The translations under genes were made by a program, and so were the position numbers. Positions 15,188-47,727 of a stretch of DNA of 64,000 nt are shown here, piece after piece (the first letter of the stretch is position 1; each line of letters begins with the position of its first letter). The DNA is from Nemertoderma westbladi (taxonomy: Eukaryota > Animalia > Xenacoelomorpha), in contig JAUCBJ010002030.1 of the NCBI GenBank assembly GCA_032718475.1, positions 1-64,000 on the forward strand, written 5' to 3'. The notes under the pieces were generated by a model. That model had not been told where the DNA came from, made no database searches, and saw nothing but the letters and a program-made list of their open reading frames with translations.

Positions 15188-16212
15188 GGTGTGCGGACAC
15201 TTCCCCCCCCCCCCCCCGACACTTACCCCCCGGACACTTCCCCTCCGAACAGTTCCTCCCCGTTCAAGTAGGACACTTCCCCCCCCCCGGACACTCCCCC
15301 CCAGACATCCCCCCCCCCTGACACTTCCCCCCCGACTGTTCTTAACTTCGCACATTCGTATTTTTCATTTTGTAAGGTAAACGGACCGCTTGTATCCAGA
15401 CAAGTTGTATCCAATTTTCCTTTCGTAGCTCAGAAAGTGATCTTTTGCATCCCTATTTTAGATTTTATATCCAAGTTTTGTTTATGGATTTTATCAATGC
15501 AATTACATTGTGTTGTTTGCTAATCTTTAAATAATTAATTAGATGACCTATAAATGACATCCCCCGACGACATGCGTCGACATATATTTTGTGTTCAGCA
15601 TTACATATTGATAAATTAATTAAATTTCCTGGTTAACTTGCAATATTTTTAATAGAATTTTGTAGAATTATATAATATTGTAGTAATTTATATATTAATT
15701 TGGTTAACATTCAATACAGCTCCTACTTTAGGCTTAGTCAATTTATTATCTGATGATACAAACATGAATTAATTATTTCAAAATGTTCTTCTTCATCACC
15801 ACGGGCACGTGTTTGCGGGCGGCACCCCCCAACAAAAGTAGCGGGGGTTTGGGGGCGGCAGCTCCCAACAAAAGAAGCGCGGGTTTGGGGGCGGCAGCAC
15901 CCAATTAAATTAAAAACAAACAAAATTTGACTATAAAAATGTGTCTTTTATAATTTTGAGAAAACTTGTTTAGATACAACTTGTCCTGTAACCATCTTTA
16001 ACTTTTGTTTATTGCTTTGATGTACCCAGATTAATTTTAACACTTTAACTGGGGGGGGGGGGGGAGTGTCCGGGGGGGGGAGTGTCCGGGGGGGGGGGGG
16101 GAGTGTCCGGGGGTGAAATGTCCGGGGAGGGGAAGTGTCCTACTTGGGCGGGGGTGGGGGGGAGGGGGGCTGGGTGGGGGGGGACTGTCCGGGGGGGAAG
16201 TGTCTTAGATCC
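15188..16212. mobile_element. Foldback DNA element (Mutator-like) with C/G-run arms
   Basis: GG...CC termini, exact 8-bp TSD AACTCAAC (15180-15187, 16213-16220); ggacacttcccc repeats on the left and ggggagtgtcc repeats on the right. Confidence 0.8.
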
Positions 16213-21722: not shown

Positions 21723-23621
21723 TAATGCGAAGAGACAGTAACAATACCTGCAATATCCTACTGTAAAGTTTGTGAATCAAATCATAAATCCGACCTTCTC
21801 ACCAAACAGTAAACTCTAAGTAAGCGAATATATTGCAGTATCGATCTCTTATAACCGGTGAGGCAGAAAACAGTCTACGAGCAGACAAACTTCGATAAAA
21901 CAAAATCCCGCGCAGCGAATCCTAAAATCAGGCTGACTCACTGACGGACTAAAGGGCTCGTATACTTTGCCGCGGTGTGATTTATATGGTTGGGCAAAGA
22001 GACGCTAGCTAGGTACAGAGGCAGAGATTTGGAGATGTCTAACTAGCGGGCAAAACACAGTAAGGACGAAAGTTAATTTTATATATTTTGAGGTGTAAAT
22101 AATTTCTAACGCGCGTGTGTTAATTCTGAACGGTCAAAAGCAGTTTTGCTCCTTCACATGTATAATTACTGGGTACGGTGTGCATTTTACGAATATTCTA
22201 ATTTTGTAACTTGTAGGTCCAATACTCACGAATGATAAGGTTCCTTCCCCTCTTGCGTATTTCCAGGACTCAAATTCAGGCATAAGGTTAATGCTACGCC
22301 CAGAATTCGGCAATTTTAATTTACCAGGTCCCTAATACTAAGAAGAAATGTGTTAGTTTACTACAGTAGGCGTACGGTTACGAATAGCTATCCTGGCTCT
22401 TATCTAGAATTTTAGTCACCTAGGTAGGCTGGGTAACTTCCTATCAGGACGTTGGCGGGGACACGGTAGATGTTAGTATATCCCTAATAGCCTCAATTTA
22501 TTTGCGCCTAGTTGTAAACTGCCCTACCGCCTGAATGGTACAATCCCAATTCAGGTGAAACACAGCAACCCTCCTAGCCTACAAGTTCTAATGCAATGGA
22601 CACCGTTGTACTGCAAATAGTCGCAAACGCACCTGTACTTAGCAAGAGTTAGGCGTACAGTTTGCTGCACCCTACCAATGTGTATGCTTCGTACCGGCGT
22701 GCCTACGTCCTATCTGCGTACTAGTATCTGCCTGCTCTCTCCCTCCCCCGTAGGAATATGAAGGTCTACTGTGGTTCTTTCCTGAATCAAGACAGTACAG
22801 TCCCTAAGATGTAATTTTAGGCTCACAGCGTGTCACTACTTCTACCTTTGATCTTTGGTCTTACGCTTAGGTAGCAAGGCGTCGAACGCTGTCTAACCTT
22901 TCAGGCGATGGGCGAATAACTAAGGTGGTATTGCGGGTTGTCTCCTGTCTACATTCCCTTGATGTTCCCGTTCATTGCTGCGGCCCGATCTCTAGCCGGC
23001 CATCCTGTTCCTAAGAGTGTTCACCGTAGTGAATCATGGTGAAAAGAAAAGCAGATAGCGGTATTTCTGAATTTATTGCAGATAATAATACAAAATGTAA
23101 TCTGAAAACTAATGACAGAATAAACAAGATTGAGTAACTAATAAGATTAGATAGATTGCACTGAGATTGATAACTAATGAACAAATCGCACCTTTATATA
23201 GCAAATTTGTGCTGCAATCAATCGAGAAAATTCTCGATTGTTCTATAGGTTCTAACAGGTTTTTAAAGATAGCTATTGGTCCAGCTAATATATAACTTGC
23301 ACGACATTGGATACAATCTAATAACTGCAGTCTCATTGGTTAATCTAGGTACAAACAAATGCAATTTAATTTGTAGCGGTTAATTTAAATGAGTTGAAAT
23401 TCTGTACAAAAAATAATTAGCACTTACTAGGATTCGAACTCAATACCTACTACACATATAATTTCCAACGCTCTACCGACTGAGCTACTGAACCACTTGA
23501 CTAAACGTCGTACAATAGATATAATAAATACAAATGAGGACTCAAAGTAATCTTTTACAAAGTTAATTCGAATAAAATAAAATTTTGAAAATCCACGGCA
23601 TTTAGGGAATATAATTCTATA
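21723..23621 (-). repeat. BEL-2 3' LTR
   Basis: Direct repeat of 38305-41127 once the CRE insertion is removed; abuts the short PPT-like ATGGAGCGG (23630-23622). Confidence 0.96.
23408..23494 (-). ncRNA. tRNA-derived Pol III-like cassette in BEL-2 U3 (second copy at 40914-41000); not a functional tRNA
   Basis: A box TAGCTCAGTCGG, B box GAGTTCGAATCC, T6 run about 17 nt downstream. Acceptor and anticodon stems are not formed. Confidence 0.6.
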
Positions 23622-24510
23622 CCGCTCCATGAAAACAGGATATTATCGTGCATAAAATATACGGTTTTCACCAATAATCAATCAAACTATAGAATACTTA
23701 GGGCGTACTTACATATTTACAATTAAATTTTAAACAATACTTCCTTTCTACATAATGATTCGATACAAAATAATTACAAATTCAAACTTTACGTAGTTAA
23801 GGCTTTACTAAGTAAGTACAATATAAATCTAAATTAAATTCACCAATATAAATCTATTGCATCTCAATATTGCATAAATTCATACAATTACAAATACAAA
23901 TAAATGAAAATCATAAGAAAGGCTCGCGAGTCTTCCATCTACTATTGCATCTCAAATATTGCATAAATTCAAATAATTACGAATACTTACGTGCCTAAAT
24001 GTAGATTGCATAAGTTCGGAATAATTACAAATATGAGTCTTTCTAAGCACAAAACTTTCTAACTATAAAACTTTCTAAATACAAAATATAACACTTTACA
24101 AATGAAACTATAAGAAAGGCCCACGAGTCTTCCATCTACTCTTACTTTCTATTTCACTGTAAATACAAATACTGCTTATAAGATATAAATTGCATAGTAT
24201 TCGGAACAATATAAATTGCATAAGTTCGGAATAATCACAAATATAAAATATAAATTCTTACTAAATATAAATCTTTACTAAATATAAATATAAACTGCAT
24301 AAGTTTAGAATAATATAAACTCCTTTACATCTCAAATATGAAACATAAATCTTTCAAATATAAGTTCCTTCTAAATATAAACTTTCTAAATTTCATAAAT
24401 TCGGAACAATACAAATTGTATAAGTTCGGATAAATATAAAATATATAACTCAAATAAATCACAAATTCACAAGAAAGGCTCACGAGTCTTCTGTCCACCC
24501 TTGCCCTCCT

Positions 24511-27500
24511 TTATCGCTTAGTTGATCGAGCCCTGCCGCGTCCTCGAAAACTGCGCACAGGTGACTTTGCTCGCGATATGGGACTTGTGGGGCGAGTCAC
24601 TGGTTTCGTTTGGACGTTGAGAGACGGTGCGACTATTTCCTCGCAAATTCGTCTATTTGGCATCCCAAAACCTCGACCGATTCCTCGTGACCGATCAGTT
24701 GTCACTACAGTTGGTAGAACGTCTGGGAACGCGCGAGAAGCGGACGACACAGACCCAAGAGTAGCTTGCGCCCCCTTTTGATCAGCTGGTGTATGTCCCG
24801 ATCCTCCTGTTGGTTCTCTAGGAAGCGATACCGTATCCCGAGTAATTCGAATGGTCGGCTCGACTCCCTTGCGTTCTTCTATATTAATAGACTTCTTTAA
24901 CTGTTGGCCCACTTTCTGGACCCGTATGATCCTACCCTGTCCGTCCTCCCGAGGGTGACGTGCAGACGGCGCAACCGGAGTGGCTGGTATATTTGTCGCC
25001 TCTAGGACCTCCTCTTCCTCGAATACGCTCGCTCGTATACGTTTATGGTAAAACGCGGCTCGGTACGCCCATGCGACGGTTAACCAAGCTCCTTTATTCC
25101 GCTTTTCAGTTCGGAAACGATCGAATTCACCATACGTGATACGATTTACGACTTTCTGAAAATTCCACGTGTTTTTGTTATCCGGGTGAATCTGTAGTAG
25201 ATACTCGCGCACTACTCGGAATCCACTGTCGTGGGGCAAAATATCGACTACCTCGATAAGTTCGTCATATTGGGGCATAGCGGAGATATATCCTTCCGAC
25301 ATCATCGTTTGGGGATTTACCGCCCAAAATCCAAGATGCGCCCTCATCGGAAATCGTCTTCTTTGTGCCGATACATGTTCGTCGGCTAAATCTTCCCACT
25401 CATCAAATAATTTTCTCACGAGTTTTACAGATTCGTGTTCATAAGGTATGTCTCTTAGTTGGCATTCAGATGCTCGATGTCCCTTTATATTGCAATAAGT
25501 ACATTGAGCCATAAATCTCCAGCAAGTATAAAAGGTATGAGACCCTTGATCTCCACACCATCCACAGATTAGCTGAGTCGTAGTAATGTGCTTTCCACTG
25601 CACTTGGTCATATGATGTCCAGCGACGCCACATTTACCACACATCGTATTGGCAGGGTACCACACTCGTTCGTATATAAGATCTCCAATCGGTCGAGCGC
25701 TTCCGCCCACACTATAATCGTAATCATCTGGATCTATGGGTTGGTAGGTTTCTGAAGGTTGTATACAAACTATAGCATCTGTTGCTTCAAGTTGTCGAAT
25801 CTCCGTCTGAGATTTCTTCGGGAGGTTCCTTTCTATCTCAAGAAGTTCCTCTAAAGGATCGTCAGCGATCGTAGTAGTTACTTCGAAATCATCACCAAGG
25901 TGACCGATAGGCGCGCGCGTCTGCCGTGATTCATCCGTAATCTCCACGATACGTTCTCCTTCATAGGGTAACAATGTAAACATAGATGGTCTTTCGATAA
26001 GAGATCCCGCACAGCGAAGATACACGTCTCGAAATATACTAAATCCTGCTCGAGTAAAGGCATTACACTGAGCGTCGGAGTTGTAGAAGGGTTCAAGGAA
26101 TCGTCTAAACACATCGGTATGAATTCTCCCTTCCATGTAGAACGTATGATCTTCTCCGAGACAAAGTGGATGTCTTTTGAGAGTCCGAGACACAATGTCG
26201 GCGATTAGGCAAACATTCACTGACGACTCTATTGCTAAATAATATTGTAAGACCGCTCTTGGAGGTGACGTAATAGCCCAATACACGCATCCTCTCCATT
26301 TAAGCTGTGATTCAAACTCACTCATATCTGGAGTATCACCTTCTCCATAAGTCTCAATATACTTGTTTCTCTTACTTTCCTTATAATCCCAATTGAATAA
26401 CAGGTAGGAAATGTATCCAGTTCCAGTCTTCTGAGTATTATACTCACGAAAATATCCCTGTTCTATAGACCACAAAATAAGAGGTTGAGTGTCGACGTAA
26501 GGTGTCGGTAGTCGGTCATCGCTGTCCGTCATGCCGGCGAAGTCGCTAATTAAGTCCTCCCTTACTCCTGATCCAATCTTTACAACAGTTTTATCTAAAA
26601 TGATGTTTCTTACCATCTTCGGTAGCATTCTAGCGTCGATATTACAAGCTTGGTCCATCTTCTTTACTATGTCGGTGATAAGATGGTGTCGCTTTGTATT
26701 CGCTGGAGGTATCGGCATTCGTTTGTCGCTCCTCTGTCTACTGAAAACGTGCAGGACTCCGTCCGCCGCTCTAATTTGTATAGTCTTAGAAGTCAAACTC
26801 TGCTGATGACTGCCGCCCTCGTTATCGTAAAACATGTAACCATTTTCATGAAACGATCTAAACGTCCTATTCCATTCATCCAACAATTCTTCCGAAGGTT
26901 GCCAAATCTTCTCTATGTCCTTATCATCTTCGAAACGAATAACCTTACCTCGCCAATCCGCGGCAATATCTGTATCCGACTCGAAGGTTCCGGTTCCAAT
27001 CCATAAACGAATCGTCTTGGTTAAATATCCTTTCAGATTACTCGGAGCTATATCGGCACCAGCTCTATCCAGTTCCTTAAAGTCTTGAATATGAGGTGGA
27101 ACGTTGTACACGACCTTTTGAGTAATATGTCTACGTAAATCATATATCTTACTCATATCGCTGAAAACAACTGCAGGAAGAAACTCCAAGTTTGAAATGA
27201 TTTCTGGATGATCCACGATGGGTATTTCGTACGTCGTATCCTGTCGGACTGGTATACTAATAGGAAAATTGAGTGTCGTACTCAATGGTTTCGTAGTTAA
27301 AGTACTATATGGTTGCATTTCTCTTGTCCTCTCCGGGGATGCAATCTGTAGTCTCTGAATAACGTTTTGAGCAAAGTTTATGCTCTCGAAAACTTCCGGT
27401 GTCATCTCCTTAGCTGGAGTTTGATCGTGTGACGTCCAATGGCAAGGTAGGCTCGCGAGTCTTCCGCCCCATTCTTCCATCTCACCTTTCTCGAAAGCCT

Positions 27501-28344
27501 TGTAGGCTCTGTATAGGCTAAGAGCTTCTTTCTTTTCGCGGGTTGACTGATTTGCCTCGTCCAGCGTAAGTTCAAATACATCGGGATCAACAACCTTAGG
27601 TGGGTAAATGACAGTTTCTCCCGCCTTTGGTCCGGTCATAGCAAATGAATGATATGGATTCGATAAAGGATACCCTCCTTCCTGGTAGCGTAGTTGTTGA
27701 TGGTTCGAACACCTCGCCAATATCGGTTCGGGATTTTCCTTATTCAAATGCATCGGAATCGCATTTCGTTGTTCGCGCATACAAGAACCGCATTGATAAT
27801 AAAGTTTATAAACTGAAAATGCTTCCTTGGTTTCTCTATCGTCCCCTCGAGTTCGTCTGTAAAGATGCATTCCATCGAATTCATCTCTTACCGCGGGCAT
27901 AGGTTCGTGCGCCTTTAGGTATTGCATGGTATGATACAAACGACTAATTTCAGTATCGGGGTCTTCGCTAATGTCTCCCGTATCACACAAAGCGTCGTAC
28001 GGGTAAAGTTCATTGAAGGTTTTGCGCAAACTTTCGATTCTTTCGTTTAATGCATTTTGTCTTCTCTTTAATACGTTCGAGTCATATTTAGTTCTCGCGA
28101 GTTTCGCTGTACTTTCCGATAATTCCTTTATACCGAATATAGTGTAGTCCTTGGCTCCAAATCTTTCAAATGGCGCTGCTGCCTCCTCTTGGATATCATA
28201 TCCCCATCTCGGCTCTCCCTGTATCACTTTCTCCATAATTAGGGGTGTAGTTACATAATCATTACTACTAGAGGGAATACAACAGAGTTTTGTAGTTAGT
28301 TGTGAGGAGACGTGAGAGTTTCGTCTGCCCTTTGGGCTCGACAA
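24511..28344 (-). CDS. BEL-2 ORF3: novel Cys/His domain, DEDDy (WRN/EXD2/Mut-7-like) 3'-5' exonuclease domain and 3 CCHC zinc knuckles; first ATG at 28236
   Basis: 1277 open codons between pol and the 3' LTR. ExoI YMFYDNEG, TIQI, LPKMVRNIILDKTVVKIGSGVRED (ExoII), YVDTQ, ExoIII-like QYYLAIE. Knuckles CGKCGVAGHHMTKC, CGWCGDQGSHTFYTC, CTYCNIKGHRASEC. Confidence 0.85.
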   Translation of the reverse strand: MSSPKGRRNSHVSSQLTTKLCCIPSSSNDYVTTPLIMEKVIQGEPRWGYDIQEEAAAPFERFGAKDYTIFGIKELSESTAKLARTKYDSNVLKRRQNALNERIESLRKTFNELYPYDALCDTGDISEDPDTEISRLYHTMQYLKAHEPMPAVRDEFDGMHLYRRTRGDDRETKEAFSVYKLYYQCGSCMREQRNAIPMHLNKENPEPILARCSNHQQLRYQEGGYPLSNPYHSFAMTGPKAGETVIYPPKVVDPDVFELTLDEANQSTREKKEALSLYRAYKAFEKGEMEEWGGRLASLPCHWTSHDQTPAKEMTPEVFESINFAQNVIQRLQIASPERTREMQPYSTLTTKPLSTTLNFPISIPVRQDTTYEIPIVDHPEIISNLEFLPAVVFSDMSKIYDLRRHITQKVVYNVPPHIQDFKELDRAGADIAPSNLKGYLTKTIRLWIGTGTFESDTDIAADWRGKVIRFEDDKDIEKIWQPSEELLDEWNRTFRSFHENGYMFYDNEGGSHQQSLTSKTIQIRAADGVLHVFSRQRSDKRMPIPPANTKRHHLITDIVKKMDQACNIDARMLPKMVRNIILDKTVVKIGSGVREDLISDFAGMTDSDDRLPTPYVDTQPLILWSIEQGYFREYNTQKTGTGYISYLLFNWDYKESKRNKYIETYGEGDTPDMSEFESQLKWRGCVYWAITSPPRAVLQYYLAIESSVNVCLIADIVSRTLKRHPLCLGEDHTFYMEGRIHTDVFRRFLEPFYNSDAQCNAFTRAGFSIFRDVYLRCAGSLIERPSMFTLLPYEGERIVEITDESRQTRAPIGHLGDDFEVTTTIADDPLEELLEIERNLPKKSQTEIRQLEATDAIVCIQPSETYQPIDPDDYDYSVGGSARPIGDLIYERVWYPANTMCGKCGVAGHHMTKCSGKHITTTQLICGWCGDQGSHTFYTCWRFMAQCTYCNIKGHRASECQLRDIPYEHESVKLVRKLFDEWEDLADEHVSAQRRRFPMRAHLGFWAVNPQTMMSEGYISAMPQYDELIEVVDILPHDSGFRVVREYLLQIHPDNKNTWNFQKVVNRITYGEFDRFRTEKRNKGAWLTVAWAYRAAFYHKRIRASVFEEEEVLEATNIPATPVAPSARHPREDGQGRIIRVQKVGQQLKKSINIEERKGVEPTIRITRDTVSLPREPTGGSGHTPADQKGAQATLGSVSSASRAFPDVLPTVVTTDRSRGIGRGFGMPNRRICEEIVAPSLNVQTKPVTRPTSPISRAKSPVRSFRGRGRARSTKR

Positions 28345-28899
28345 CGCTCTAACCTCCTACCCATAGCCTAAGATCTAGGGTTTCTTTAATGACACGCTGC
28401 TTCTTATCTAAAATTTTTTGCCGAAATAAAAACGAATTTGGGCTAAACTGGCTGTGAGTCTAAAATACTCACTTTTTGATCCCAAACTATTATCAGAAAA
28501 TAAGCAATCAAGAATTAGTAATAAATATAGGGGAGTCTATTTATTGACGTAACTTATTGAAACAAGACCGTGTAAAATTTTAATTAAAAATTTAAGAAAG
28601 GCTCGCAAGTCTTCCTCTCTTGTTTCTCTAATTTTAAGTTCCACCCGACTGTACCCTGAAATCTATTCACTGGAGAAAATTTTAAAAATTTTTCAAATCC
28701 AAATGGATTGTCTAAAATTTCGAAAATGTCTCAATATTGTGAGTTCCAAGTAGAATTCCATTTCTTATACCTACAAATCCCGCTCCTATGTGACACATAA
28801 GGGTACCACCCTCAATGTTCACATATAAAGACAATGGAATTCTACCGCTGTCCTTACTATGGTGTACAGGTACGTGGAAATCTATTTGTAAACTCCTAA

Positions 28900-31800
28900 T
28901 TATTTACTAATATTAGGTGGAGATTTGTAGTCTCCAGAATCGTTACGAGTCTCTTCAAGAAGTACGAGACGTTGAGTCGGTCTGTCTACTGTACGACCGT
29001 CAATTGTCCGTACCGTCACAGTTCTTGTCACTCCATCCATAGATGGATGTGTGTCTAAAATTACACCTGTTATCCAGAAGCGTCTTTTTAGATTCACTTC
29101 CGCTAACAGCACGTGATCTCCCGGCTTTAATGCGCGGGTGTTATTGTACCAAGTTGTTCTGGCAGAAATAGAGGGCAAATAATGGTTTTGCCATATTTCC
29201 CAGAATTTGTTAGCTAGTAGTTGCGTGATTTTCCACGCCTTTCTACCGTAGCTATCGCTTTCTATTGGAATAGAAATAGGCGTCAATGTGGTCGGTGCCT
29301 GCATTAGCAGGTGTGCCGGTGTCAAAGCAAACTGAGATTGTTTGTCATCGGGTACTAATACTATTGGTCTAGTATTTAGTATTGCCTCGATTTCAACAAA
29401 CAATGTTGTCAGTTGGTCGTCTGTCAATATGTGGTTTACTAGAATGACCTTTGCCATGGCTGTCTTTATAGATCTAATCAATCTCTCCCAGACTCCGCCT
29501 CTCCATGGACTATCTGGAGGATTAAACTTCCAAACAATCTTGTAAGGACGTAGTTCGTTTGAGATTTGATCATGATCTAATTTCTTAAAGGCTCTAGCAA
29601 TCTCATTCCGAGCACCAACAAAGTTTGTCCCTTGGTCTGAGTACAAGCATTTCACTAGTCCGCGTCTAGCGATAAATCGCCGCAATGCTAGTATAAACGC
29701 GTTGGTGGAAAGATCCATCACACGTTCAATATGAACTGCCCTACTGGACATACATGTGAAAATCAGTCCCCAGCGTTTTACTAGTATACGTCCACGTTTC
29801 GTATGTATGGGACCAAAGCAATCAATTCCAGTCTCTGTAAAAGGTGGTCTGAATGCTTGAAGTCGTGCTTGTGGAAGTTCACTCATTTCTTGGGTACCTA
29901 TTCTAGAATGTACCTTTTTACAAATAATACACGTACGTGTCACTGAACTTAATGCTTTACTGGGTCTAATTAATACAAATCTTGTACGTAAGTAGGAAAG
30001 ACAGTGGTGTCTTCCAGCGTGTTTCAGATGTAAATGTGCGTCCAGTATCATTGCACGTTGTAGTTCGTGATGCTGCGGTATTATTATTGGGTATCTAAAG
30101 TTTGTGTTAAAGTCAATGTTTTGAAGCCGAGATTTATGACAAATTAAGCCATTATAAATAATCGGACTCCAACTCAGTATTGGTGACGACTTGATTGGTT
30201 GACCTTGATTTATAGATGTGAATTCGCGTGCGAAATATCGCAGTTGGTAATGGCGAATTAATTTAATTTCACACCTGTCAATCTCAGCCAATGTAAGTCG
30301 ACGTGTAAAGTCTCGTTTGCCTTTAACGTATTGTACAAAACGTACAATCCACGCTAATTTTCGGCAAGCGTTTGTCCAAGAGTCTGTTAAGTTTACAATA
30401 CGGTCGACGTGAGTATTTGTGACGTCATCAGGTAAGTCAATGGAGATTTTGGAAGGTTTTGATTTACTAGAAGGGCCCACGGGTCCGCCGGTAAGTATTC
30501 CCTTGTTGACTGTTGATCCGTCCGGGTCTACAAGTAATTTGTCCTTCTTCGTCTTCTTACCTTGATTGTCAGTACTTTGTAAGTCGATCGTTAATGGTGG
30601 TTTGAACTCTATGGGGTCACTGGGTTTCGGTAAACTTATTTTTCTGCCGACATTAATCCCAGGTCTTACCATAGGTTGCAAGTTTGGTATGTCTCTTGAG
30701 CGCAAAGTAACACCTGTATTTACATTAGCGTAGGTACTACCCACATCTGTAATACATGAGGTTTCACCGTGCTTACGGTTGCTCAAGTGTGTCAAATTTG
30801 GTAGTTTGTCAATACAAGGCCGCTCCAATAGAGAAACTGCGGCTTCACTATTTGTCAGTATGTCACTAGTGTCTGGTAGAACATTTTGTGATATGTCTGG
30901 CAAAATGTCTGGTTGGCTGTCTAGTAACGTGTCTAGTTGACCGTCTGGCGATATGTCTGGTGTAGAAAGGCTCGCAAGTCTTCCTCTCTTGACCTTTGAA
31001 GTTATATCTTTCCATTTCGCCTTCGGTTTTTTCTTGAGTTTAGCCGCCGTCTTTTTCTTTGCTTTCCCTTTCTTTGGTTTTTTGATTTCCGCGTCTTTAG
31101 GGATAGTGTTAGACTTGTTGTCATATAGTGGTGGCCAATTTAGTGTTGATCTTTGTAAGAATTGTGGTCCGTGTTGCCAAAATTCTTTGTTCTCCGGTTT
31201 ACAGAATTCCTCAGGCATCATTCCTCTTGACGCAATATCGGCTGGGTTTTGTGGTCCGGGACAATGTCTCCAATCTTCTTTTATTGAACGGTCTAGAATT
31301 TCCGCGCGACGGTTAGCTACGAATGTCTTGAATTCAAGTGTGTCGTTGTTTATGTAAAATAAAACCAACGTCGCGTCAGTCCAATAAAATATCTGTAAAC
31401 TTGACTGTAGTTCTGTCTGTATAAGGTTCACAATTGTGGTTGACAGTGTTGCGGCTTGTAGCTCAGCTCGTGGTGTCGTCATATACTTAGTAGGCATTGT
31501 TTTTGCCTTAGAAGTAATGAGCGAAACATCGAATTCTTCTGAGTCTACTTGTCTGCGCAAGTACGCTGCCACACCAAAACCGTTGTCACTGGCGTCCGAA
31601 AAACAATGTAATTCCAAGTTGTCAGGAAATGTTGTTTGTAATGGAAAGTAGACTCTGGGTATGGAATAATCCTCTAGCGAAGATAATTCTGCCTCCCAGG
31701 TCTTCCATAAGTCCACTTGGTCTGATGAGATCGGCTCGTCCCATGTCAGTCCATCCTTCCAAATACTGCGCATATAAATGCGGGCTTGCAGTATTATTGG

Positions 31801-34365
31801 ACTGATGAATCCTAATGGATCGAACAATCGGCTCAATTTTGACAAGCATGATCTCTTTGTCAGTGTGTTTTCTTGACTGTCCAGTCTCACCCTCACTCGA
31901 AAGTTGTCTGTGTTTGGGTCCCAAAAGAGCCCCAACACCTTGGTCGTCGGTAGTGGTTCGAACTCTAGGTCTATGTCACCACCTCCACGCTCAGTCGTTC
32001 CGAATGAGTCTACTAATTCGGCACTGTTTGAGGCGAATTTGGTGAGGTTAAAACCTCCGCCCGCTAAGCAGTCCCGTAATTGATGTGCTACTGTTACAGC
32101 ACGTTCTACTGTGTCACAACTCTGTAAACCGTCGTCGACGTAAAAGTCACGCTCCACAATCCTAATTATCTCTGGGTCATATAAATGTTTCTGATCCCTA
32201 GCGGCTTGTTTTAGGGCGTACATCGTACAGTTTGGGCTGTCTCTGGCACCGAAAACGCGAACTTGCATTTGGTAAGTCGCCGGTGGTAGACTTAAGTCTC
32301 CTTCCGGATACCAGAGGAACCTCAAACTGTCTCTGTCTTGCTCTAACGCTCTCACTTGGTGAAACATAGCTTCAACGTCACAAGTAAAAGCTACTTGACG
32401 CTGACGGAAGCGCATAATCACCCCCATAAGATAATTATTCATGTTTGGTCCATCCATCAACTCGCTATTGAGGGACATTCCCTCAAACAGAGCCGCACAG
32501 TCATTGACTACACGTACTTTGTCTGGTTTGTCGGGGTGTCTCACATAGTGATGTGGCAGGTAGTATGTCTGGTTAGTCACTATCTCTGGGTTAGTCATTC
32601 GGATAGCGTATCCCTTAGTCAAATACGTCTCCATCTGAGTGTTGTACTGCAGATGGGCTTTCTCGTCCTTTAATAGACGTTGCCGTATTGAGTGTAGACG
32701 TCTTAAAGCTAGTGGGTAGTTATTTATAAGTTTAGGACTTTGGCTACGCCATAACATCCCCACCTCATAATGTCCGTCTTTCGCCTGGCGGATAGTATCT
32801 TCCATGATCCTCAAAGATTGTTTCTCCTGTTCCGACATACATGGTTCGTAGCTACCAGGTTCAGCTGTATCTTGTTCTAACCACCTGATAGTCTTCTCCG
32901 TTAATTCTTTGTCCAATGCAGCTTGTTCCACTTGATGATTTCTCAACGCGTCATCATCGATATCGACGGGCATTGTTGAGGTTGTTGGGGTAGGTAGACT
33001 CGCAAGCCTTCCGGCGTTATCATCTGTCGTCGATGGAATCTCTAGCTGACTCGTCTTCTCCCCAAGTTCTAAACTCACCTGGTGAATTAGCTGCTCCTTG
33101 TGACTTATCTTACTAGTTACACGTCTGTCATGTTTTGTATGTAAGGTAGTATGGTCCACGTCGTGTGAAAAGGAATGAATTGAATTTGTAGTTAATAAAC
33201 TACATGTACTTTGTACATCGTCTTCCTCGTCACTTATGTCCAGTGTGCGCACAGGCGCTCGAGTATACCACCCTATCGGCGTTCTACAGGCGTATGCGTT
33301 TCCCGCTACGACTGCCGATGGTCTGGTTTCCCACACTTGATGTAGGTTGAATTGGTCTGTCCCGATCAGCATGGCTACCGATCTATAATTGACAGGACAT
33401 TCAGGTACACCAAGGTGTCTGAAATATTTACGGTCCTCCAAGGATTGTTCTGGGACAGGACCTAGTAGGTTACTAAAGTCTTTGGTGGCCACAAAAGTCA
33501 AATCCTTGAAGGGTAACAAAGACCTCTCCTTTTCGCTGTGTTGCGATTTTGGAAGAAGAGTGTCTAAGTTTAACTTAACTCGTGTCACTGGTATTGCACG
33601 TTGTCCGTGCATACTACTTACGGTGTAACTGACGCGCTTACCTTGTCTGAGATCCGTCACTACATCAGCTATCTGCTCATCCACGTAGCTGTGAGATGAG
33701 GCTGAATCCAGGATAGCGTAGATTCTCTTGCTCCCCTTTGTGCCAGTAATCTTAATTGGAATTACGCTGAATCCCTTTAGTTGGTCAGTCGTCAGAAGCG
33801 CGATCGATGGTTGGTCGTCTCCATCAGAATATACGTCGTCGTCTTCTGACTCTTCGTCCAACGATCCGGATTGTTCTGAGAAGCAATCCTTGATATGTGT
33901 CACAAAGGTTGGAGTCGTTTTCGATTCTCGATTTTTGTAGGCCGCATCACATCTCGCTGCTGCTTCCGGGTGTTCCCTGGCGAAGCGTTTTGTTGGCGTG
34001 TGGCTGTCTGTGTGGAGCAGACCGTCGTGGTTGTGTCCACAGGATGGACAAGTGTTGGTATTTGGGCAATCTTTGCGAACGTGTCCGTGTCGCGTACACC
34101 GCCAACAAGAGTCCAATGGCCGTATCTGCAGCCGTCGTTCTTCCGAGTTTAACTCGCGAAACTGTCGACAACCTCTCAACTTGTGACCGATATACCGCTT
34201 GCCTAAATGCTCGCAGTATTGGCAGCCGCTGAAGTCGGTACCGAGTTGCTGTCTAGTCTGTTTTGTCCCAATGGGCGCAGATACCCTACTACCGTCCGAG
34301 AATTGTCGGGTTTCCGTCGGTGTGGCGTAAGTGGCCGTCTTGGTGGATGTTGTCTGGGGTTTTTG
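28900..34365 (-). CDS. pol: BEL-2 NC-pol: zinc knuckles, aspartic protease, RT, RNase H, integrase
   Basis: The frame is open from the gag stop. CQYC..H..C / CWRC..H..C / CPSC..H..H knuckles, AILDSAS, CDVEAMFHQV, FYVDD, HCFSDAS, NPADIASRG, HHCC, GIDCFG-SDQGTNF-WERL. Confidence 0.95.
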   Translation of the reverse strand, partial: QKPQTTSTKTATYATPTETRQFSDGSRVSAPIGTKQTRQQLGTDFSGCQYCEHLGKRYIGHKLRGCRQFRELNSEERRLQIRPLDSCWRCTRHGHVRKDCPNTNTCPSCGHNHDGLLHTDSHTPTKRFAREHPEAAARCDAAYKNRESKTTPTFVTHIKDCFSEQSGSLDEESEDDDVYSDGDDQPSIALLTTDQLKGFSVIPIKITGTKGSKRIYAILDSASSHSYVDEQIADVVTDLRQGKRVSYTVSSMHGQRAIPVTRVKLNLDTLLPKSQHSEKERSLLPFKDLTFVATKDFSNLLGPVPEQSLEDRKYFRHLGVPECPVNYRSVAMLIGTDQFNLHQVWETRPSAVVAGNAYACRTPIGWYTRAPVRTLDISDEEDDVQSTCSLLTTNSIHSFSHDVDHTTLHTKHDRRVTSKISHKEQLIHQVSLELGEKTSQLEIPSTTDDNAGRLASLPTPTTSTMPVDIDDDALRNHQVEQAALDKELTEKTIRWLEQDTAEPGSYEPCMSEQEKQSLRIMEDTIRQAKDGHYEVGMLWRSQSPKLINNYPLALRRLHSIRQRLLKDEKAHLQYNTQMETYLTKGYAIRMTNPEIVTNQTYYLPHHYVRHPDKPDKVRVVNDCAALFEGMSLNSELMDGPNMNNYLMGVIMRFRQRQVAFTCDVEAMFHQVRALEQDRDSLRFLWYPEGDLSLPPATYQMQVRVFGARDSPNCTMYALKQAARDQKHLYDPEIIRIVERDFYVDDGLQSCDTVERAVTVAHQLRDCLAGGGFNLTKFASNSAELVDSFGTTERGGGDIDLEFEPLPTTKVLGLFWDPNTDNFRVRVRLDSQENTLTKRSCLSKLSRLFDPLGFISPIILQARIYMRSIWKDGLTWDEPISSDQVDLWKTWEAELSSLEDYSIPRVYFPLQTTFPDNLELHCFSDASDNGFGVAAYLRRQVDSEEFDVSLITSKAKTMPTKYMTTPRAELQAATLSTTIVNLIQTELQSSLQIFYWTDATLVLFYINNDTLEFKTFVANRRAEILDRSIKEDWRHCPGPQNPADIASRGMMPEEFCKPENKEFWQHGPQFLQRSTLNWPPLYDNKSNTIPKDAEIKKPKKGKAKKKTAAKLKKKPKAKWKDITSKVKRGRLASLSTPDISPDGQLDTLLDSQPDILPDISQNVLPDTSDILTNSEAAVSLLERPCIDKLPNLTHLSNRKHGETSCITDVGSTYANVNTGVTLRSRDIPNLQPMVRPGINVGRKISLPKPSDPIEFKPPLTIDLQSTDNQGKKTKKDKLLVDPDGSTVNKGILTGGPVGPSSKSKPSKISIDLPDDVTNTHVDRIVNLTDSWTNACRKLAWIVRFVQYVKGKRDFTRRLTLAEIDRCEIKLIRHYQLRYFAREFTSINQGQPIKSSPILSWSPIIYNGLICHKSRLQNIDFNTNFRYPIIIPQHHELQRAMILDAHLHLKHAGRHHCLSYLRTRFVLIRPSKALSSVTRTCIICKKVHSRIGTQEMSELPQARLQAFRPPFTETGIDCFGPIHTKRGRILVKRWGLIFTCMSSRAVHIERVMDLSTNAFILALRRFIARRGLVKCLYSDQGTNFVGARNEIARAFKKLDHDQISNELRPYKIVWKFNPPDSPWRGGVWERLIRSIKTAMAKVILVNHILTDDQLTTLFVEIEAILNTRPIVLVPDDKQSQFALTPAHLLMQAPTTLTPISIPIESDSYGRKAWKITQLLANKFWEIWQNHYLPSISARTTWYNNTRALKPGDHVLLAEVNLKRRFWITGVILDTHPSMDGVTRTVTVRTIDGRTVDRPTQRLVLLEETRNDSGDYKSPPNISK

Positions 34366-37300
34366 TCAGTTTGAGGATGGCAAGGTGATTCCTTCTGCCA
34401 CGATGTGCTGGTCAGTGTAGTTGGATTGAGTTTCTACCACTGCCTCCCTGGATATCAAAATGTACACATCCTCCAGTTTTAAGAATCCATCCCGCTCTTC
34501 TCGCTGGTATTCGATCTTCCTCCACTCCCGACGAAGTCGATGGTGGAGTCGTCCTATGATCTTTAATAGGACTGTAGGGGTATTCCCGTAGTCAAGTTGT
34601 CCAATGGATCTCAAAGTAGTGATAGCGTTCTTTATCTCGTCAGCCAGTTTCAATAAGTCTACGGGTTTAGTAATAGCCCCTCCCTTACAGAGTTCCTCTA
34701 TCACTGACCTGGCCATGCTGACTGTACCTCTGTAGATCGAAGTTAAACGATCGTACGCTAGTTCGAAAGCGTCCGGTACACCAACAAAGGTCTCCGCCAA
34801 ACGTTTAGGTTCTCCTGACAACGTTTGAAGCAGGTAATTAAACTTCTCCCGTGATGTAAAGGCGCACACGGCGATCTGAGATTCGATATAGTCTACGAAA
34901 GTGTGCCAGTGTTTTGAACTACCGGAAAACTTCGGTGGTTGTTGTACCGGCAATCCCTGTCTGGCTGCGAATTTCGCTATCTCCTCGGCAACGTTCAGAA
35001 TTTCGCGTCCTTGGTTGGTAATCTGGTTGATATCCCTTCTTGGCGCTTTTCCCTGATACGATGTGTGTTTTGAAGGTACCGGTCTTTGTGGTTCCTTCGG
35101 GTGTCTATTGTGTTCGAATTCAGTGTTCCTCGAACTATCGGTTTGAACTTCCTCCAGACGTTCCTCAATCTGAGCCAACTTGTTAACAACTGGTCGCAGG
35201 ATGTCGGCGAACTGTTGTATACTGATTGCGTCCGTTGGTTGTAACGCCTTCTGTGTTGGTGTATTCTGTGGAGGATTGTCTACAAAGGAGTTGTCTGAAC
35301 GCTCGCGTTTATATTCATCGGCCGCCCCTGTTCTAAATACCTCGCGTTTCGGGTAATCCGATTCGCTCGAAGTACTACTATCATCTGGATATGGTGGTCG
35401 ACATGTTCGCGTCCGTTGCGTCGTCCGAATTCTAACGTTTCGCCTCGGAACATCGTCCACTGATCTCCGCTGCTCGGTAGGCTCACAAGTCTTCCTTGAA
35501 GTCGTAGATTGCGATGTAAACTGGTTGAACGGTCGCATATCCACTGGTCTCCGTTGTTCGGTAGGCTCACAAGTCTTCCTCGAAGTCGTAGATTGCGATG
35601 TAAACTGGACCGGTGGTCGAATAGCCGCCTTTGAATCAACTGGCCTTGTAGGCCGAAATGTCATTGGGTATTCGTAGTGTGTAACCGGTTTAGGTGTCAA
35701 AGGTGGACTCACGTGTTTTGTCGTTAGTAGTGCAGGTCCGGTCAATAAACTACTACGATCTGTAATCGGTGGGTTACTTACCTTGACTTTCAGAATAGGC
35801 GACGACGTTGCTCTTGGCGGTGTAAACTTGTCCGGAATAACAAACCTGTGTTCCGTCGCACCATGGATAGGAGAAATATCACTACTACCCGCAATCGAAA
35901 CAGGTTTCTTAGTTGTAACTGGTGCGAACATAGGGGTTACTTGAGGGAATCTTTGACATAAGTCTTTAACTAATTGTCGTTCCCGTCCGGGTGCTCCTAC
36001 GCTTCCTTCCTTCTTCCGTTCCTGAATTTGGCGATGTCTTACCTCTAACTGGTCCAAATCATGTCCGTCACGAGATCTCATTGATCGATCGCGGGCCTTT
36101 TGATCCAGATCCTCCTCGGCGTTCGCTAATTCTCTCGCCTTCTTCTCGAGTTCAAAATGAAGTTTAGCTGTCTTCTCTCGTTGTTCCGTTTGTTGTCGTT
36201 GCGCCTCAAACTCCGCTTGTCGTATAGCGGATTGAGCTTTTATTTGCCGTGTTTTCATTTCGGCCCGTGCTTCCGAAACTAATCGTTCTCGCTCTAATTC
36301 CGCCACTGCCGTTTGTCGCTCTAGTTCTGCCATTTGTCGCTCTAATTCCGCCGCTGCCGTTTGTCGCTCTAGTTCGGCCGCTGCCGTTTGTCGCTTTAAT
36401 TCTGCCGTTTGTCGCTCTAATTCCGCCGCTGCCGTTTGTCGCTCTAGTTCTGCCGCTGCGTTTCGTTGCGCTAAATCAGCCGCTGCCGTTCGTTGAGCAA
36501 TGTCTACCTCTAACCTTTCTACTTCAGCTGCTTCTAATTCAGCTTGTTCCTGTAGATGAGAGATTCTCGCTACATTCGCAACGCGTAGCTTCTCTTCTTC
36601 TGCTGCTGCCTGCATCACTAGAAGTTGAGCTTGTTCCTCCATTTCTCGTCGTTGTCGGTAGAATTCTTGCTGTTGTCGAGCAACTTCTGACGTAACCATA
36701 CTTCCCTCGCCAATTTCGCTACGAATACTTACCAACGATTGATCCAATATTCCCGTTGCCGATTCGATTCGTACGGGTGAAGTTTCCCTCGTATATTCCG
36801 GCACGGTTTCCAAATCGCCGACGTCGACGCACATACGTAAGTGATCCGTCAGGTGTTTCAATTGTCCATCCAGTCGGTACAGTTCCTGTTCTTCCTCGGG
36901 TTGTAATAATTCGTCCGAAACTGACTCACCTAACAACTGGTCCGCTTGTTCCTGTTGTATCTGCCTAATCGTCGACTTAAACTGAATCAGTTTCTCTCTA
37001 GCGATCATTAGTTTATCGAGGATTCTAAGTTGAGTATCCATGTCCTGTCTCTGTCTAGCTAGATCTTGTAGACCAATTAGGTTATCTACGGACTTGTGTA
37101 CTCTACTTTGTACTCTAACCTGGAGGGTGTAGAACTCGAATCGAGACATCGGAGCGGTCAACTCGTTTAAAATGCGTTGGCCTTCTCCAATACTCCTGGT
37201 TATATGCGCCATGTATCCGCCGACGCTTCTAACCACACTCTCCTGACTTCCTGCTGAACTTACCATGTCTGTTTCCCTGTATCTAGGTTGTGGAACAGTT

Positions 37301-37494
37301 AGAAAGTCCTCGGTCCTGCCGTCGCCTCGTACTACGGCATCCGGTACTCCCGTTGGATGTACTGGTGACGCACACGGTGTAGGTTCGGTAGGCTCGCGAG
37401 TCTTCCCCTGTTGTTCTTCCGCTGCTGACTTATCTCCGTCGCATGAGTCATAGTCGGTAGGTGTATTCTTCGTATAGTCTTGTTTGTCACTCAT
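34366..37494 (-). CDS. gag: BEL-2 gag (coiled-coil region plus BEL capsid-like domain)
   Basis: 1042 aa; AAAELERQT tandem repeats; PPKFSGSSKHWHTF...KFNYLLQTLSGEP typical of BEL/Pao gag. Confidence 0.9.
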   Translation of the reverse strand: MSDKQDYTKNTPTDYDSCDGDKSAAEEQQGKTREPTEPTPCASPVHPTGVPDAVVRGDGRTEDFLTVPQPRYRETDMVSSAGSQESVVRSVGGYMAHITRSIGEGQRILNELTAPMSRFEFYTLQVRVQSRVHKSVDNLIGLQDLARQRQDMDTQLRILDKLMIAREKLIQFKSTIRQIQQEQADQLLGESVSDELLQPEEEQELYRLDGQLKHLTDHLRMCVDVGDLETVPEYTRETSPVRIESATGILDQSLVSIRSEIGEGSMVTSEVARQQQEFYRQRREMEEQAQLLVMQAAAEEEKLRVANVARISHLQEQAELEAAEVERLEVDIAQRTAAADLAQRNAAAELERQTAAAELERQTAELKRQTAAAELERQTAAAELERQMAELERQTAVAELERERLVSEARAEMKTRQIKAQSAIRQAEFEAQRQQTEQREKTAKLHFELEKKARELANAEEDLDQKARDRSMRSRDGHDLDQLEVRHRQIQERKKEGSVGAPGRERQLVKDLCQRFPQVTPMFAPVTTKKPVSIAGSSDISPIHGATEHRFVIPDKFTPPRATSSPILKVKVSNPPITDRSSLLTGPALLTTKHVSPPLTPKPVTHYEYPMTFRPTRPVDSKAAIRPPVQFTSQSTTSRKTCEPTEQRRPVDMRPFNQFTSQSTTSRKTCEPTEQRRSVDDVPRRNVRIRTTQRTRTCRPPYPDDSSTSSESDYPKREVFRTGAADEYKRERSDNSFVDNPPQNTPTQKALQPTDAISIQQFADILRPVVNKLAQIEERLEEVQTDSSRNTEFEHNRHPKEPQRPVPSKHTSYQGKAPRRDINQITNQGREILNVAEEIAKFAARQGLPVQQPPKFSGSSKHWHTFVDYIESQIAVCAFTSREKFNYLLQTLSGEPKRLAETFVGVPDAFELAYDRLTSIYRGTVSMARSVIEELCKGGAITKPVDLLKLADEIKNAITTLRSIGQLDYGNTPTVLLKIIGRLHHRLRREWRKIEYQREERDGFLKLEDVYILISREAVVETQSNYTDQHIVAEGITLPSSN

Positions 37495-38293
37495 TTCGGT
37501 AGTTGTAAGTCAAGTAAAGTGAGTGTCAAAGTATCAAACTTACCATATTTTATCTAAACGGTACTAATTACAGTCATATAAAATTAGCCTACCGGCCGAT
37601 TTTATAGCAGATGGATAAAATTAGCCTAAACGGCCAATTTTACAGCAAATAAATGTCACGGAATAAGTATATAATAAAATTAGCCTAGCGGCCAATTTTA
37701 TAACAAATAAATCGGATAACGATATGCGTTATCAAAAGGTAAATTAAATACAATAATACGGACTAATTCAGCAATGAACAAAGAAATCGTACGGAATGCA
37801 TAAATACTTGAGGCAGTGGAACCCACAATAATTTTAACTAATACGGTAATGCCTAACTTATTTATGCAACTTTTCGAACTCACCCACTCCAATAATTCTC
37901 CAGAAAAACAGATTCCCAGATACAAACCGGACGTGAACCTTTCCGTTTTTAACGTTGCGGACGAAGCGCGATTTTCCCAACCAAAGTTGTTGAGTTATCT
38001 ATCTCCCAAACTTGCTAAACACGGTCTTGCTCCCGTTACAGTCTAGAAATGAGTTCTGAATCCTGAAAAAACAAAAGAGTTAGGTTTTACTTTTTACGAA
38101 AATTTTGTACCGGTACAATATGGTATTTAAACCCTTTTAAACACCGGTATTCAATTCCAAAATATTTTACACGCGGTTCAAATCAAATTTTTATTTCAAA
38201 AAATTAGCACTTAGCTAATCAAATACAAATTTTTACCTCAAAATACAAAATTTTCAAATAACTTTAGTCCTACCGAACCGTAGTTCAGTAAAA

Positions 38294-38304
38294 CATATTC
38301 CTAC
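38294..38304 (-). promoter_or_regulatory. BEL-2 non-tRNA primer-binding site (putative self-priming)
   Basis: GTAGGAATATG abuts the 5' LTR and is exactly complementary to sense-strand CATATTCCTAC at 39342-39332 (3' LTR copy 22760-22750). Confidence 0.75.
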
Positions 38305-41127
38305 TAATGCGAAGAGACAGTAACAATACCTGCAATATCCTACTGTAAAGTTTGTGAATCAAATCATAAATCCGACCTTCTCACCAAACAGTAAACTCTA
38401 AGTAAGCGAATATATTGCAGTATCGATCTCTTATAACCGGTGAGGCAGAAAACAGTCTACGAGCAGACAAACTTCGATAAAACAAAATCCCGCGCAGCGA
38501 ATCCTAAAATCAGGCTGACTCACTGACGGACTAAAGGGCTCGTATACTTTGCCGCGGTGTGATTTATATGGTTGGGCAAAGAGACGCTAGCTAGGTACAG
38601 AGGCAGAGATTTGGAGATGTCTAACTAGCGGGCAAAACACAGTAAGGACGAAAGTTAATTTTATATATTTTGAGGTGTAAATAATTTCTAACGCGCGTGT
38701 GTTAATTCTGAACGGTCAAAAGCAGTTTTGCTCCTTCACATATATAATTACTGGGTACGGTGTGCATTTTACGAATATTCTAATTTTGTAACTTGTAGGT
38801 CCAATACTCACGAATGATAAGGTTCCTTCCCCTCTTGCGTATTTCCAGGACTCAAATTCAGGCATAAGGTTAATGCTATGCCCAGAATTCGGCAATTTTA
38901 ATTTACCAGGTCCCTAATACTAAGAAGAAATGTGTTAGTTTACTACAGTAGGCGTACGGTTACGAATAGCTATCCTGGCTCTTATCTAGAATTTTAGTCA
39001 CCTAGGTAGGCTGGGTAACTTCCTATCAGGACGTTGGCGGGGACACGGTAGATGTTAGTATATCCCTAATAGCCTCAATTTATTTGCGCCTAGTTGTAAA
39101 CTGCCCTACCGCCTGAACGGTACAATCCCAATTCAGGTGAAACACAGCAACCCTCCTAGCCTACAAGTTCTAATGCAATGGACACCATTGTACTGCAAAT
39201 AGTCGCAAACGCACCTGTACTTAGCAAGAGTTAGGCGTACAGTTTGCTGCACCCTACCAATGTGTATGCTTCGTACCGGCGTACCTACGTCCTATCTGCG
39301 TACTAGTATCTGCCTGCTCTCTCCCTCCCCCGTAGGAATATGAAGGTCTACTGTGGTTCTTTCCTGAATCAAGACAGTACAGTCCCTAAGATGTAATTTT
39401 AGGCTCACAGCGTGTCACTACTTCTACCTTTGATCTTTGGTCTTACGCTTAGGTAGCAAGGCGTCGAACGCTGTCTAACCTTTCAGGCGATGGGCGAATA
39501 ACTAAGGTGGTATTGCGGGTTGTCTCCTGTCTACATTCCCTTGATGTTCCCGTTCATTGCTGCGGCCCGATCTCTAGCCGGCCATCCTGTTCCTAAGAGT
39601 GTTCACCGTAGTGAATCATGGTGAAAAGAAAAGCAGATAGCAGTATTTCTGAATTTATTGCAGATAATAATACAAAATGTAATCTGAAAACTAATGACAG
39701 AATAAACAAGATTGAGTAACTAATAAGATTAGATAGATTGCACTGAGATTGATAACTAATGAACAAATCGCACCTTTATATAGCAAATTTGTGCTGCAAT
39801 CAATCGAGAAAATTCTCGATTGTTCTATAGGTTCTAACAGGTTTTTAAAGATAGCTATTGGTCCAGCTAATATATAACTTGCACGACATTGGATACAATC
39901 TAATAACTGCAGTCTCATTGGTTAATCTAGGTACAAACAAATGCAATGGAGCCACTCCACGAGGCGAACCGCGCGGCACTGCGGGCGGCCACAACAACGC
40001 CACTCGAGATCGCCCGTCTTAACGTTGTTGACGACCCGGTATCCGGTTGTTGGCTGGACGCTATTCCCATCAGCTCGCTAGGGCTGAAACTCACGGACTC
40101 CCAGTTCAGGGTTTCTGTCGCCACACGCCTCGGTTGCAAGTTAACCGAACCCCACAGGTGCTCCCGGTGCGGATCCGAAGTAAAACCGGATGGTCTCCAC
40201 GGACTATCCTGTGTGAGAAGCGCCGGGAGGCTGCCACGCCACTCTATGTTAAACGACATAGTGAAACGTGCATTGGCCTCCTGTGGGGTTAGAGCTCGCC
40301 TTGAACCGGTCGGGTTGTGTAGGGCTGATGGGAAGCGTGTCGATGGCGTTACCCTCGAATCGTGGAGTGGGGGCCGGCCGATGACTGGGATGCGACCGTC
40401 GTCGACCCCCTCGCTCCCAGTCATCTCGCCCAGAGCATGCAGGCCGGCCGCCATGTTGTCGAGGAGGCGGAAAACTCAAAGATTAAGAAATACGAGGAAC
40501 TGACCGTCCGAGGGAGCTACCTCTTCTACCCGGTAGCATTCGAGACCTTCGGTCGGCCCGGTCCTGAGACGGCTGCATTCCTTAAGGAGGTTGGCCGACG
40601 CCTCCACGCAGCCACTCAGGAGCCGCGATCCCATCGGTTCCTCCTCCAACGTCTCCTCGTAGCCATCTTGATCGGCAACACGGCCTCCATCCTCGGCTCC
40701 ATGGACCCTCTGTCCGACGGCCTCTACGACGAGGTTTTGTCGCCAGCTGCCCCCGCACCCCCCACTGACTCAGCGGGTTAGACTGATCTTGAACTTTTGT
40801 ATATAGTTAGGTAGGTAGTTTATATTAATTTAGTTAGTGTGCCTCATTGTGCTATAAGAAAATAATGCAATTTAATTTGTAGCGGTTAATTTAAATGAGT
40901 TGAAATTCTGTACAAAAAATAATTCGCACTTACTAGGATTCGAACTCAATACCTACTACACATATAATTTCCAACGCTCTACCGACTGAGCTACTGAACC
41001 ACTTGACTAAACGTCGTACAATAGATATAATAAATACAAATGAGGACTCAAAGTAATCTTTTACAAAGTTAATTCGAATAAAATAAAATTTTGAAAATCC
41101 ACGGCATTTAGGGAATATAATTCTATA
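38305..41127 (-). repeat. BEL-2 5' LTR (interrupted by CRE-like insertion)
   Basis: 2823 bp minus the 916-bp insert and 8-bp TSD equals 1899 bp, matching the 3' LTR. Confidence 0.96.
39948..40863 (+). mobile_element. 5'-truncated CRE-like (RLE) non-LTR retrotransposon
   Basis: Absent from the other LTR; 8-bp TSD AATGCAAT (39940-39947, 40864-40871). Encodes CSRC..DGLHGLSC, RHSMLND, DGKRVDG, WDATVVD, AENSKIKKY, FYPVAFETFG across one frameshift. Confidence 0.88.
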
Positions 41128-47722: not shown

Positions 47723-47727
47723 TACAA

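Follow-up and report, generated by a model that had tools for sequence, protein, structure and literature searches.

Why would a retrotransposon repeat one short palindrome, in a single orientation, through its genes and the non-coding RNA around them? The question is raised by a BEL/Pao long terminal repeat (LTR) retrotransposon in a 64,000-nucleotide (nt) stretch of Nemertoderma westbladi DNA (contig JAUCBJ010002030.1, positions 1 to 64,000; the window). A first-pass annotation had described ten copies of a 17-nt hairpin motif here. The motif is real and all ten coordinates hold it, but the conserved unit is 20 nt long and present in twelve copies. On the sense strand it reads GGAAGRCT-YGYG-RGYC-TWYC, an imperfect palindrome of 8 + 4 + 8 nt. 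All twelve copies lie on the coding strand of the element and in its internal region, from gag through pol and ORF3 (open reading frame 3) to the 3' untranslated region (UTR). The original pattern had no match in any of 100 dinucleotide shuffles. The element and the copies are given below (RT, reverse transcriptase; 6/15, paired positions 6 and 15 of the unit).

21723-41127, minus strand: BEL/Pao element, 18.5 kb; the motif stretch is its internal region
37387..37406, minus strand: copy 1, gag codon 35 (KTREPT), loop CGCG
35560..35579, minus strand: copy 2, gag codon 644 (KTCEPT), loop TGTG
35476..35495, minus strand: copy 3, gag codon 672, loop TGTG
32993..33012, minus strand: copy 4, pol protease-RT linker (GRLASL), loop TGCG, G·U replacing A·C at 6/15
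30965..30984, minus strand: copy 5, pol RNase H-integrase linker (GRLASL), loop TGCG
30470..30489, minus strand: copy 6, new, pol RNase H-integrase linker (GGPVGPS), loop CGTG
28596..28615, minus strand: copy 7, non-coding pol-ORF3 spacer, loop TGCG
27446..27465, minus strand: copy 8, ORF3 codon 258 (GRLASL), loop CGCG
25906..25925, minus strand: copy 9, new, ORF3 codon 771 (RQTRAPI), loop CGCG
24473..24492, minus strand: copy 10, 3' UTR directly past the ORF3 stop, with loop CGTG and a broken terminal pair
24114..24133, minus strand: copy 11, 3' UTR, loop CGTG, U·G at 8/13
23917..23936, minus strand: copy 12, 3' UTR, loop CGCG

A descriptor was made from the invariants of the first ten copies (G5, C7, YGYG, G14, C16, and A·C or G·U at 6/15). 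In the internal region it recovers these ten together with copies 6 and 9, where 0.05-0.06 matches per element are expected, and at least two matches occurred in 0/300 shuffles under each of two nulls. The reported absence of the motif from the LTRs and the other elements of the window was confirmed by descriptor and covariance-model scans, the former finding no copy in the 49 kb outside the internal region. Mobile palindromes of the REP/RPE kind are scattered through host genomes in both orientations, unlike this single-orientation set with 0 copies in those 49 kb. The covariance model was built from the twelve copies, whose match to it is by construction; it yielded no thirteenth copy, the next matches having E values of 1.2 or worse. 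A single Rfam match (E 0.11), under the cut-off of that database, was disregarded. An alternative register (G1-C16, G2-C15) was rejected, as it reaches the flanks in two copies only and leaves positions 17-20 unexplained.

The ten copies listed originally are not independent. Copies 2 and 3 form an 84-nt tandem duplication, and 7-nt 5' flanks are common to the copies at 30965 and 28596 and to those at 24114 and 23917. In most pairs the likeness between copies ends at the 20-nt borders.

Of the twelve copies, four lie outside coding sequence and the other eight divide equally between two reading frames, which rules out protein-level constraint as the source of the motif. The peptides are those reported, GRLASL in pol (two copies) and ORF3, and KTREP/KTCEP in gag. 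When the proposed check of synonymous sites was made, random recoding retained the descriptor with a probability of just 0.00005-0.007 in 8/8 coding copies, a result that alone is no proof of selection because shared descent could equally give such identity. The coding copies are located in linkers: three pol copies sit where 1-16% of 120 homologues align, compared with 72-100% across RT-RNase H, and the gag copies sit where no homologue aligns. The motif peptides are missing from 120/120 pol homologues, which are too distant to inform. The use of two frames and of non-coding sequence, the low survival of recoding and two-sided changes in three pairs together indicate a cis code at the nucleic-acid level. 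That part of the first-pass annotation stands, whereas the palindromic duplex DNA site that it also offered becomes the least likely of its options, as discussed below. The motif is very probably selected at the nucleic-acid level; packaging, dimerisation and knuckle binding are the functions that we infer for it.

The placement of the copies is more even than random. With copies less than 400 nt apart merged, a threshold picked after the data were seen, the nine clusters leave eight gaps with a coefficient of variation of 0.37 (P 0.003, or P 0.024 when the null leaves out gaps <400 nt), and the largest gap is at most 2525 nt.

The pairs within the unit were then compared across the twelve copies. 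Pair 8/13 is U-A in nine copies and U·G, C-G and G-C in one each, pair 4/17 is A-U in eleven and G-C in one, and pair 2/19 is G·U in seven and G-C in five. Pairs 5/16 and 7/14 are invariant, pair 3/18 is unpaired in 7/12 copies, and pair 6/15 is A·C in eleven copies and G·U in one, never Watson-Crick. The G·U belongs to copy 4 and replaces A·C on the sense strand, as had been noted; the two wobbles have similar geometry, and a small inversion plus one transition could be an alternative origin of this copy. The new copies carry three compensatory pair changes, A-U to G-C at 4/17 and U-A to C-G at 8/13 in copy 6 and U-A to G-C at 8/13 in copy 9, and both pair at all four positions where the descriptor demands no pairing. 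Because these copies nevertheless keep the YGYG loop and the A·C mismatch, selection appears to act on a folded shape and not on protein. The covariation score of 0.203 was equalled by 2/500 shuffles and lay above all six slid controls, and RNAalifold yields the same hairpin. The term hairpin is thus backed by covariation, although not by the folding energy of the sense strand.

The loop is YGYG in 12/12 copies, with both G's invariant, and is UGCG in 3/12. Among the first ten copies, 9/9 loop changes are CG to TG and 0 are CG to CA. Transitions across the family are strand-balanced (C>T 148, G>A 138; run X1), and CpG is not depleted (observed/expected 1.15). Decay of CpG is an unlikely source of YGYG, given the lack of both CpG depletion and CA forms, although the events are few.

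The reading that we prefer, at a probability of roughly 0.45, is that the copies are dispersed sense-RNA stem-loops bound by element-encoded zinc knuckles, likely those of the Gag nucleocapsid (NC), for packaging or dimer formation. A knuckle protein would use the stem-loops in the unusually long genomic RNA (~17 kb) to select, condense and pair it. What it reads would be a shape, namely a short stem, the 6/15 wobble or mismatch between two invariant G-C pairs, and the YGYG loop as a cap. The fold would be weak alone and stabilised by the bound protein, whose knuckles may grip the loop G's in the manner of the UGCG loop of Rous sarcoma virus (RSV) and the GGAG loop of human immunodeficiency virus (HIV). 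That the loop G's never vary, next to a closing pair that covaries freely, is better matched by a protein touching the loop than by pairing on its own. Each copy could, in addition, pair with its counterpart on another genome, a chaperone turning hairpins into duplexes and so zipping the genomes in register. New copies would be made by template-switch copying and kept only where the protein tolerates them.

Computed on the sense strand, the central 8 nt form an unbroken self-duplex in 12/12 copies, compared with 4/12 on the other strand, and 46/66 cross pairs are unbroken over the same 8 nt. The sense strand also shows exchange between G-C (5 copies) and G·U (7 copies) at 2/19, and between U-A and U·G at 8/13. 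Since sense RNA is what the proteins of the element handle, the sense strand is favoured by about two to one.

By analogy, the closest working parallel to the array would be the dispersed packaging signals of RNA viruses, with which it shares a loop motif spread over coding and non-coding RNA. In enterovirus E, many short dispersed packaging sites overlap coding sequence and are proposed to bind coat protein (PMC7793301). Those signals were found by systematic evolution of ligands by exponential enrichment and are degenerate, whereas here near-identical covarying 20-mers with putative binding occur in a reverse-transcribing element. Hairpins of retroviruses include the RSV UGCG tetraloop (PMC5035970), the SL-A/B palindromes and GACG loops of murine leukaemia virus (PMC5874298) and the HIV GGAG loop (PMC13736810). 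Like these packaging (psi) and dimer hairpins, the unit combines a putative tetraloop with exposed G's, a palindrome capable of passing from hairpin to duplex, and a knuckle-bearing Gag, and RSV and HIV-2 likewise retain the signal in spliced RNA. Retroviral psi comprises a few distinct 5' hairpins, while here one unit recurs twelve times over 13.5 kb. A palindrome suited to an intermolecular duplex is present, as computed, but just 1/12 copies lies near the start of gag and 0 in the leader, so that the array is not classed as a psi element. The palindromes PAL1 and PAL2 of Ty1, also an LTR retrotransposon, occur as a labile stem-loop when the RNA is monomeric and as a duplex promoted by Gag when it is dimeric (PMC9503155), but are two sites at the 5' end and not a dispersed array.

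A literature search, covering few subscription journals, found no dispersed repeated hairpins described in BEL/Pao or other LTR elements. Recognition of self RNA by LTR retrotransposons is known for a few 5' signals (Ty1, retroviruses), and none was found for BEL/Pao. A near-identical, covarying 20-nt unit in twelve copies would be a ready ligand with which to test dispersed-signal packaging in retrotransposons, and bears on whether long genomes need signals distributed along their length.

Several results weigh against sense-RNA stem-loops bound by Gag knuckles. In nine of the first ten copies the sense hairpin reaches -0.4 to -2.0 kcal/mol, compared with -2.8 to -4.9 kcal/mol for the antisense strand (9/10 copies). 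Mean pairing probability in a 120-nt context is 0.04 for the sense strand, while antisense RNA reaches 0.58 and minus-strand DNA 0.33, and stem mismatches number 19/96 in sense and 15/96 in antisense. The number of pairs with a two-sided change is not significant (131/500 shuffles), and the loop bias perhaps reflects 2-3 independent events, as the copies are related. Copies 6 and 9 are the top sense-strand sub-hits of a position weight matrix and first surfaced as such, which makes the descriptor test partly post hoc. Variable places within the family fall inside a copy in 0 of the 40 shown (of about 1090) where ~0.7 are expected and, for the 3' UTR, in 1 of 13 where ~1.3 are expected, the minority change going back to the common letter; with expected counts of just 0.7 and 1.3, both tests are powerless. 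The neighbouring BEL elements, both incomplete, hold no dispersed repeat above shuffles. The UGCG loop of RSV is important for NC and not for the selectivity of Gag (PMC5035970). Finally, 5/12 copies persist in the spliced ORF3 RNA described below, and the motif alone is thus insufficient to single out the unspliced genome.

The signs of conservation in sister elements are anecdotal. Some family members carry a 9-nt indel overlapping the outer 5' arm of the copy at 32993, the number of copies in the 3' UTR differs between members, and in two contigs (one joint, one loose end) the motif is aligned up to its border next to another 5' flank. The search of viral contigs by RT found no relative with DNA. 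Pattern scans returned 2 viral and 26 metagenome loci, and as 28/28 are single sites and none matches gag, pol or ORF3, they are taken as chance.

The protein that reads the sense copies may instead be ORF3, which has knuckles and possibly a DEDD fold, and which would then label both RNAs, the genomic and the spliced, as 'self' for their protection, export or transport. We regard this as unlikely. It concerns the following features.

24511..28236, minus strand: ORF3, 1241 amino acids (aa), non-env, three CCHC knuckles at ~aa 867-926
28268..37883, minus strand: intron GT..AG, 9616 nt, the removal of which gives the ORF3 RNA; contains 7/12 copies
49346-51166, minus strand: ORF3, with a Cys/His-bearing N-terminal part, of a neighbouring BEL (47726-60489), from which most of pol is missing

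One contig of run X4 joins 37884 to 28267 over GT..AG ends, and the intron acceptor is preceded by a branch-like site and a pyrimidine tract. As X4 is labelled DNA by guess, the junction means that the run is of RNA or else that the DNA contains a spliced copy. Splicing removes seven copies, and the five that remain in the ORF3 RNA favour a reader encoded there, as do its three knuckles. Residues 430-720 score 0.93-0.94 in Atlas against 3'-5' exonuclease clusters (24/30 matches in the PF01612 set), the middle of the protein has a weak match to DnaQ (E 0.027), and D471-x-E473, spotted by eye, are candidates for acidic residues of the ExoI/II/III set. From sequence, ~aa 465-680 are a possible DEDD exonuclease, as a lead only; this lead is without a Pfam, PDB-sequence, PHROG or database match, which counts against an ORF3 reader. 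No homologue of residues 1-860 was found among 1.84 billion representatives, and two single-sequence structure predictions gave an unusably low predicted local distance difference test score of 30-32. Over 133 aa the N-terminal part shares 31% identity with the ORF3 of the neighbouring BEL (E 3e-11), a relationship that points to an unnamed ORF3 domain common to distant BEL families; that neighbour has this related ORF3 start yet no repeat.

Precedents for such a reader exist on both counts. Egalitarian (Egl) binds localisation stem-loops, among them the I-factor ILS, through an exonuclease-homology domain (PMC13186709), a parallel in which a retrotransposon stem-loop within coding sequence meets a reader with a 3'-5' exonuclease-homology domain. 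Egl is a host protein, however, and its signals are longer bent helices without shared sequence that require two helices of at least 6 bp with 3'-strand bulges, whereas the unit here is an 8-pair stem without conserved extension. Bdelloid LTR elements are known to carry DEDDy ORF3s (PMC5408684; PMC6431247), Juno and Vesta among them (PMC5408684). If the exonuclease lead is right, these two and the present element have in common an ORF3 that is non-env, follows pol and adopts a 3'-5' exonuclease fold. Juno and Vesta belong to other lineages, the word 'hairpin' is absent from PMC5408684, and the ORF3 described here has 1241 aa and knuckles.

The better energies, the higher predicted pairing in context and the fewer mismatches of the other strand suggest a second alternative, in which the fold forms in minus-strand cDNA or antisense RNA and provides pause, priming or protein-loading sites along a long genome. 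On that strand, though, seven copies at 2/19 and one at 8/13 have A·C or C·A mismatches in place of the exchanged pairs. No antisense transcript was seen, in runs of which none is on record as RNA, and we know of no such mechanism in LTR elements. This explanation is rather improbable.

VANC sites in VANDAL transposons provide the model for a third, in which the unit serves as a duplex DNA target for a protein dimer, from the host or the element, acting in anti-silencing or insulation. It would account for the near-palindrome and the weak sense RNA fold, and direct duplication would give the single orientation without selection. Two-sided compensatory changes and a coupled 6/15 wobble would be unexpected if half-sites were bound independently, and the LTRs and leader are free of copies. 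As the compensatory changes and the never-Watson-Crick 6/15 indicate a folded single strand, a duplex site is very unlikely. To a similar degree we doubt that the array is a neutral by-product, a hairpin that causes reverse transcriptase to jump, is copied about and survives in linkers without function: some copies share flanks, the coding copies are all in tolerant linkers and the 3' UTR copy number varies, but similarity stops at the 20-nt edges in most copy pairs, the diverged copies changed in compensated pairs and the spacing is even. N6-methyladenosine sites, ADAR sites and internal polypurine tracts are disfavoured because they leave the compensated pairs unexplained.

The element itself is a recently inserted BEL/Pao retrotransposon, organised as follows.

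38305..41127, minus strand: 5' LTR, 1899 nt plus a 916-nt insert
21723..23621, minus strand: 3' LTR, 99.6% identical to the 5' LTR, ends TA...TA
34366..37509, minus strand: gag ORF (DUF1759), terminating at an in-frame TGA
28900..34365, minus strand: pol ORF, in the gag frame after the TGA; knuckles, protease, RT, RNase H, integrase, DUF5641

Its direct LTRs of 1899 nt are flanked by a short, 5-nt target-site duplication, as in BEL/Pao elements, and the gag DUF1759, the Pao peptidase/RNase H domain and DUF5641 place it in that group, as does the pol domain order protease-RT-RNase H-integrase. Three Cys-His knuckles lie ahead of the protease, and the RNase H corresponds to Peptidase_A17. Among the 120 pol homologues listed, the nearest are 38-44% identical (closest 43%), and those named are from molluscs, cnidarians and a fish, among others, so that an animal host is likely. 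In DNA sequencing runs the family is both abundant and variable, and the length of the element RNA is estimated at ~17 kb from LTR signals.

The in-frame TGA (34366-34368), with CAA after it, stands between the capsid portion of gag on one side and the knuckles and pol on the other, and could be a stop that leaks or represent damage to this one copy. At 30430-31100, ~220 additional residues between RNase H and integrase are covered by almost no homologue and hold two motif copies. The LTR termini (21723, 41127) are TA...TA and not TG...CA, and the end of the polypurine tract is the same as in the neighbouring BEL. A GC-rich insert of 916 nt (39948-40863) is confined to the 5' LTR, with an 8-nt duplication on both sides. 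In U3, a tRNA-like stretch with look-alikes of an A-box and a B-box was seen by eye at ~23420-23495 (minus strand; LTR nt 127-200), in which ARAGORN found no tRNA.

The internal regions of this element and of the neighbouring BEL lack the usual TGG start; in both, the first 11-12 nt past the 5' LTR are perfectly complementary to a site in the LTR, with the geometry of a primer.

38294..38304, minus strand: primer-binding position, 11 nt, perfectly complementary to LTR nt 862-872

The partner sites at LTR nt 862-872 are window positions 39332-39342 and 22750-22760, and in the neighbouring BEL the first nt after the 5' LTR (~59322-59333) are complementary to its LTR nt 357-368. Complementarity at the priming position of this element was reached in 6/2000 shuffles, and the sequences suggest self-priming in both BELs. 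In this element the partner site apparently lies well downstream of the likely transcription start, an arrangement unlike that of Tf1. A literature search did not find self-priming in BEL/Pao; it is known for Tf1/Sushi and TAR (PMC6317226). Priming of this kind would also belong to a system of self-contained RNA recognition, in which the twelve-hairpin array is read by an ORF3 exonuclease-knuckle protein and priming proceeds without tRNA from the internal LTR site. That combination is a long shot; if true, the retrotransposon would mark its whole RNA as self, with ORF3 protecting, moving or zipping it.

Elsewhere in the window, positions 1-16200 contain nested inverted-repeat elements with tandem arrays inside them, built from units 20, 22 and 24 nt long.

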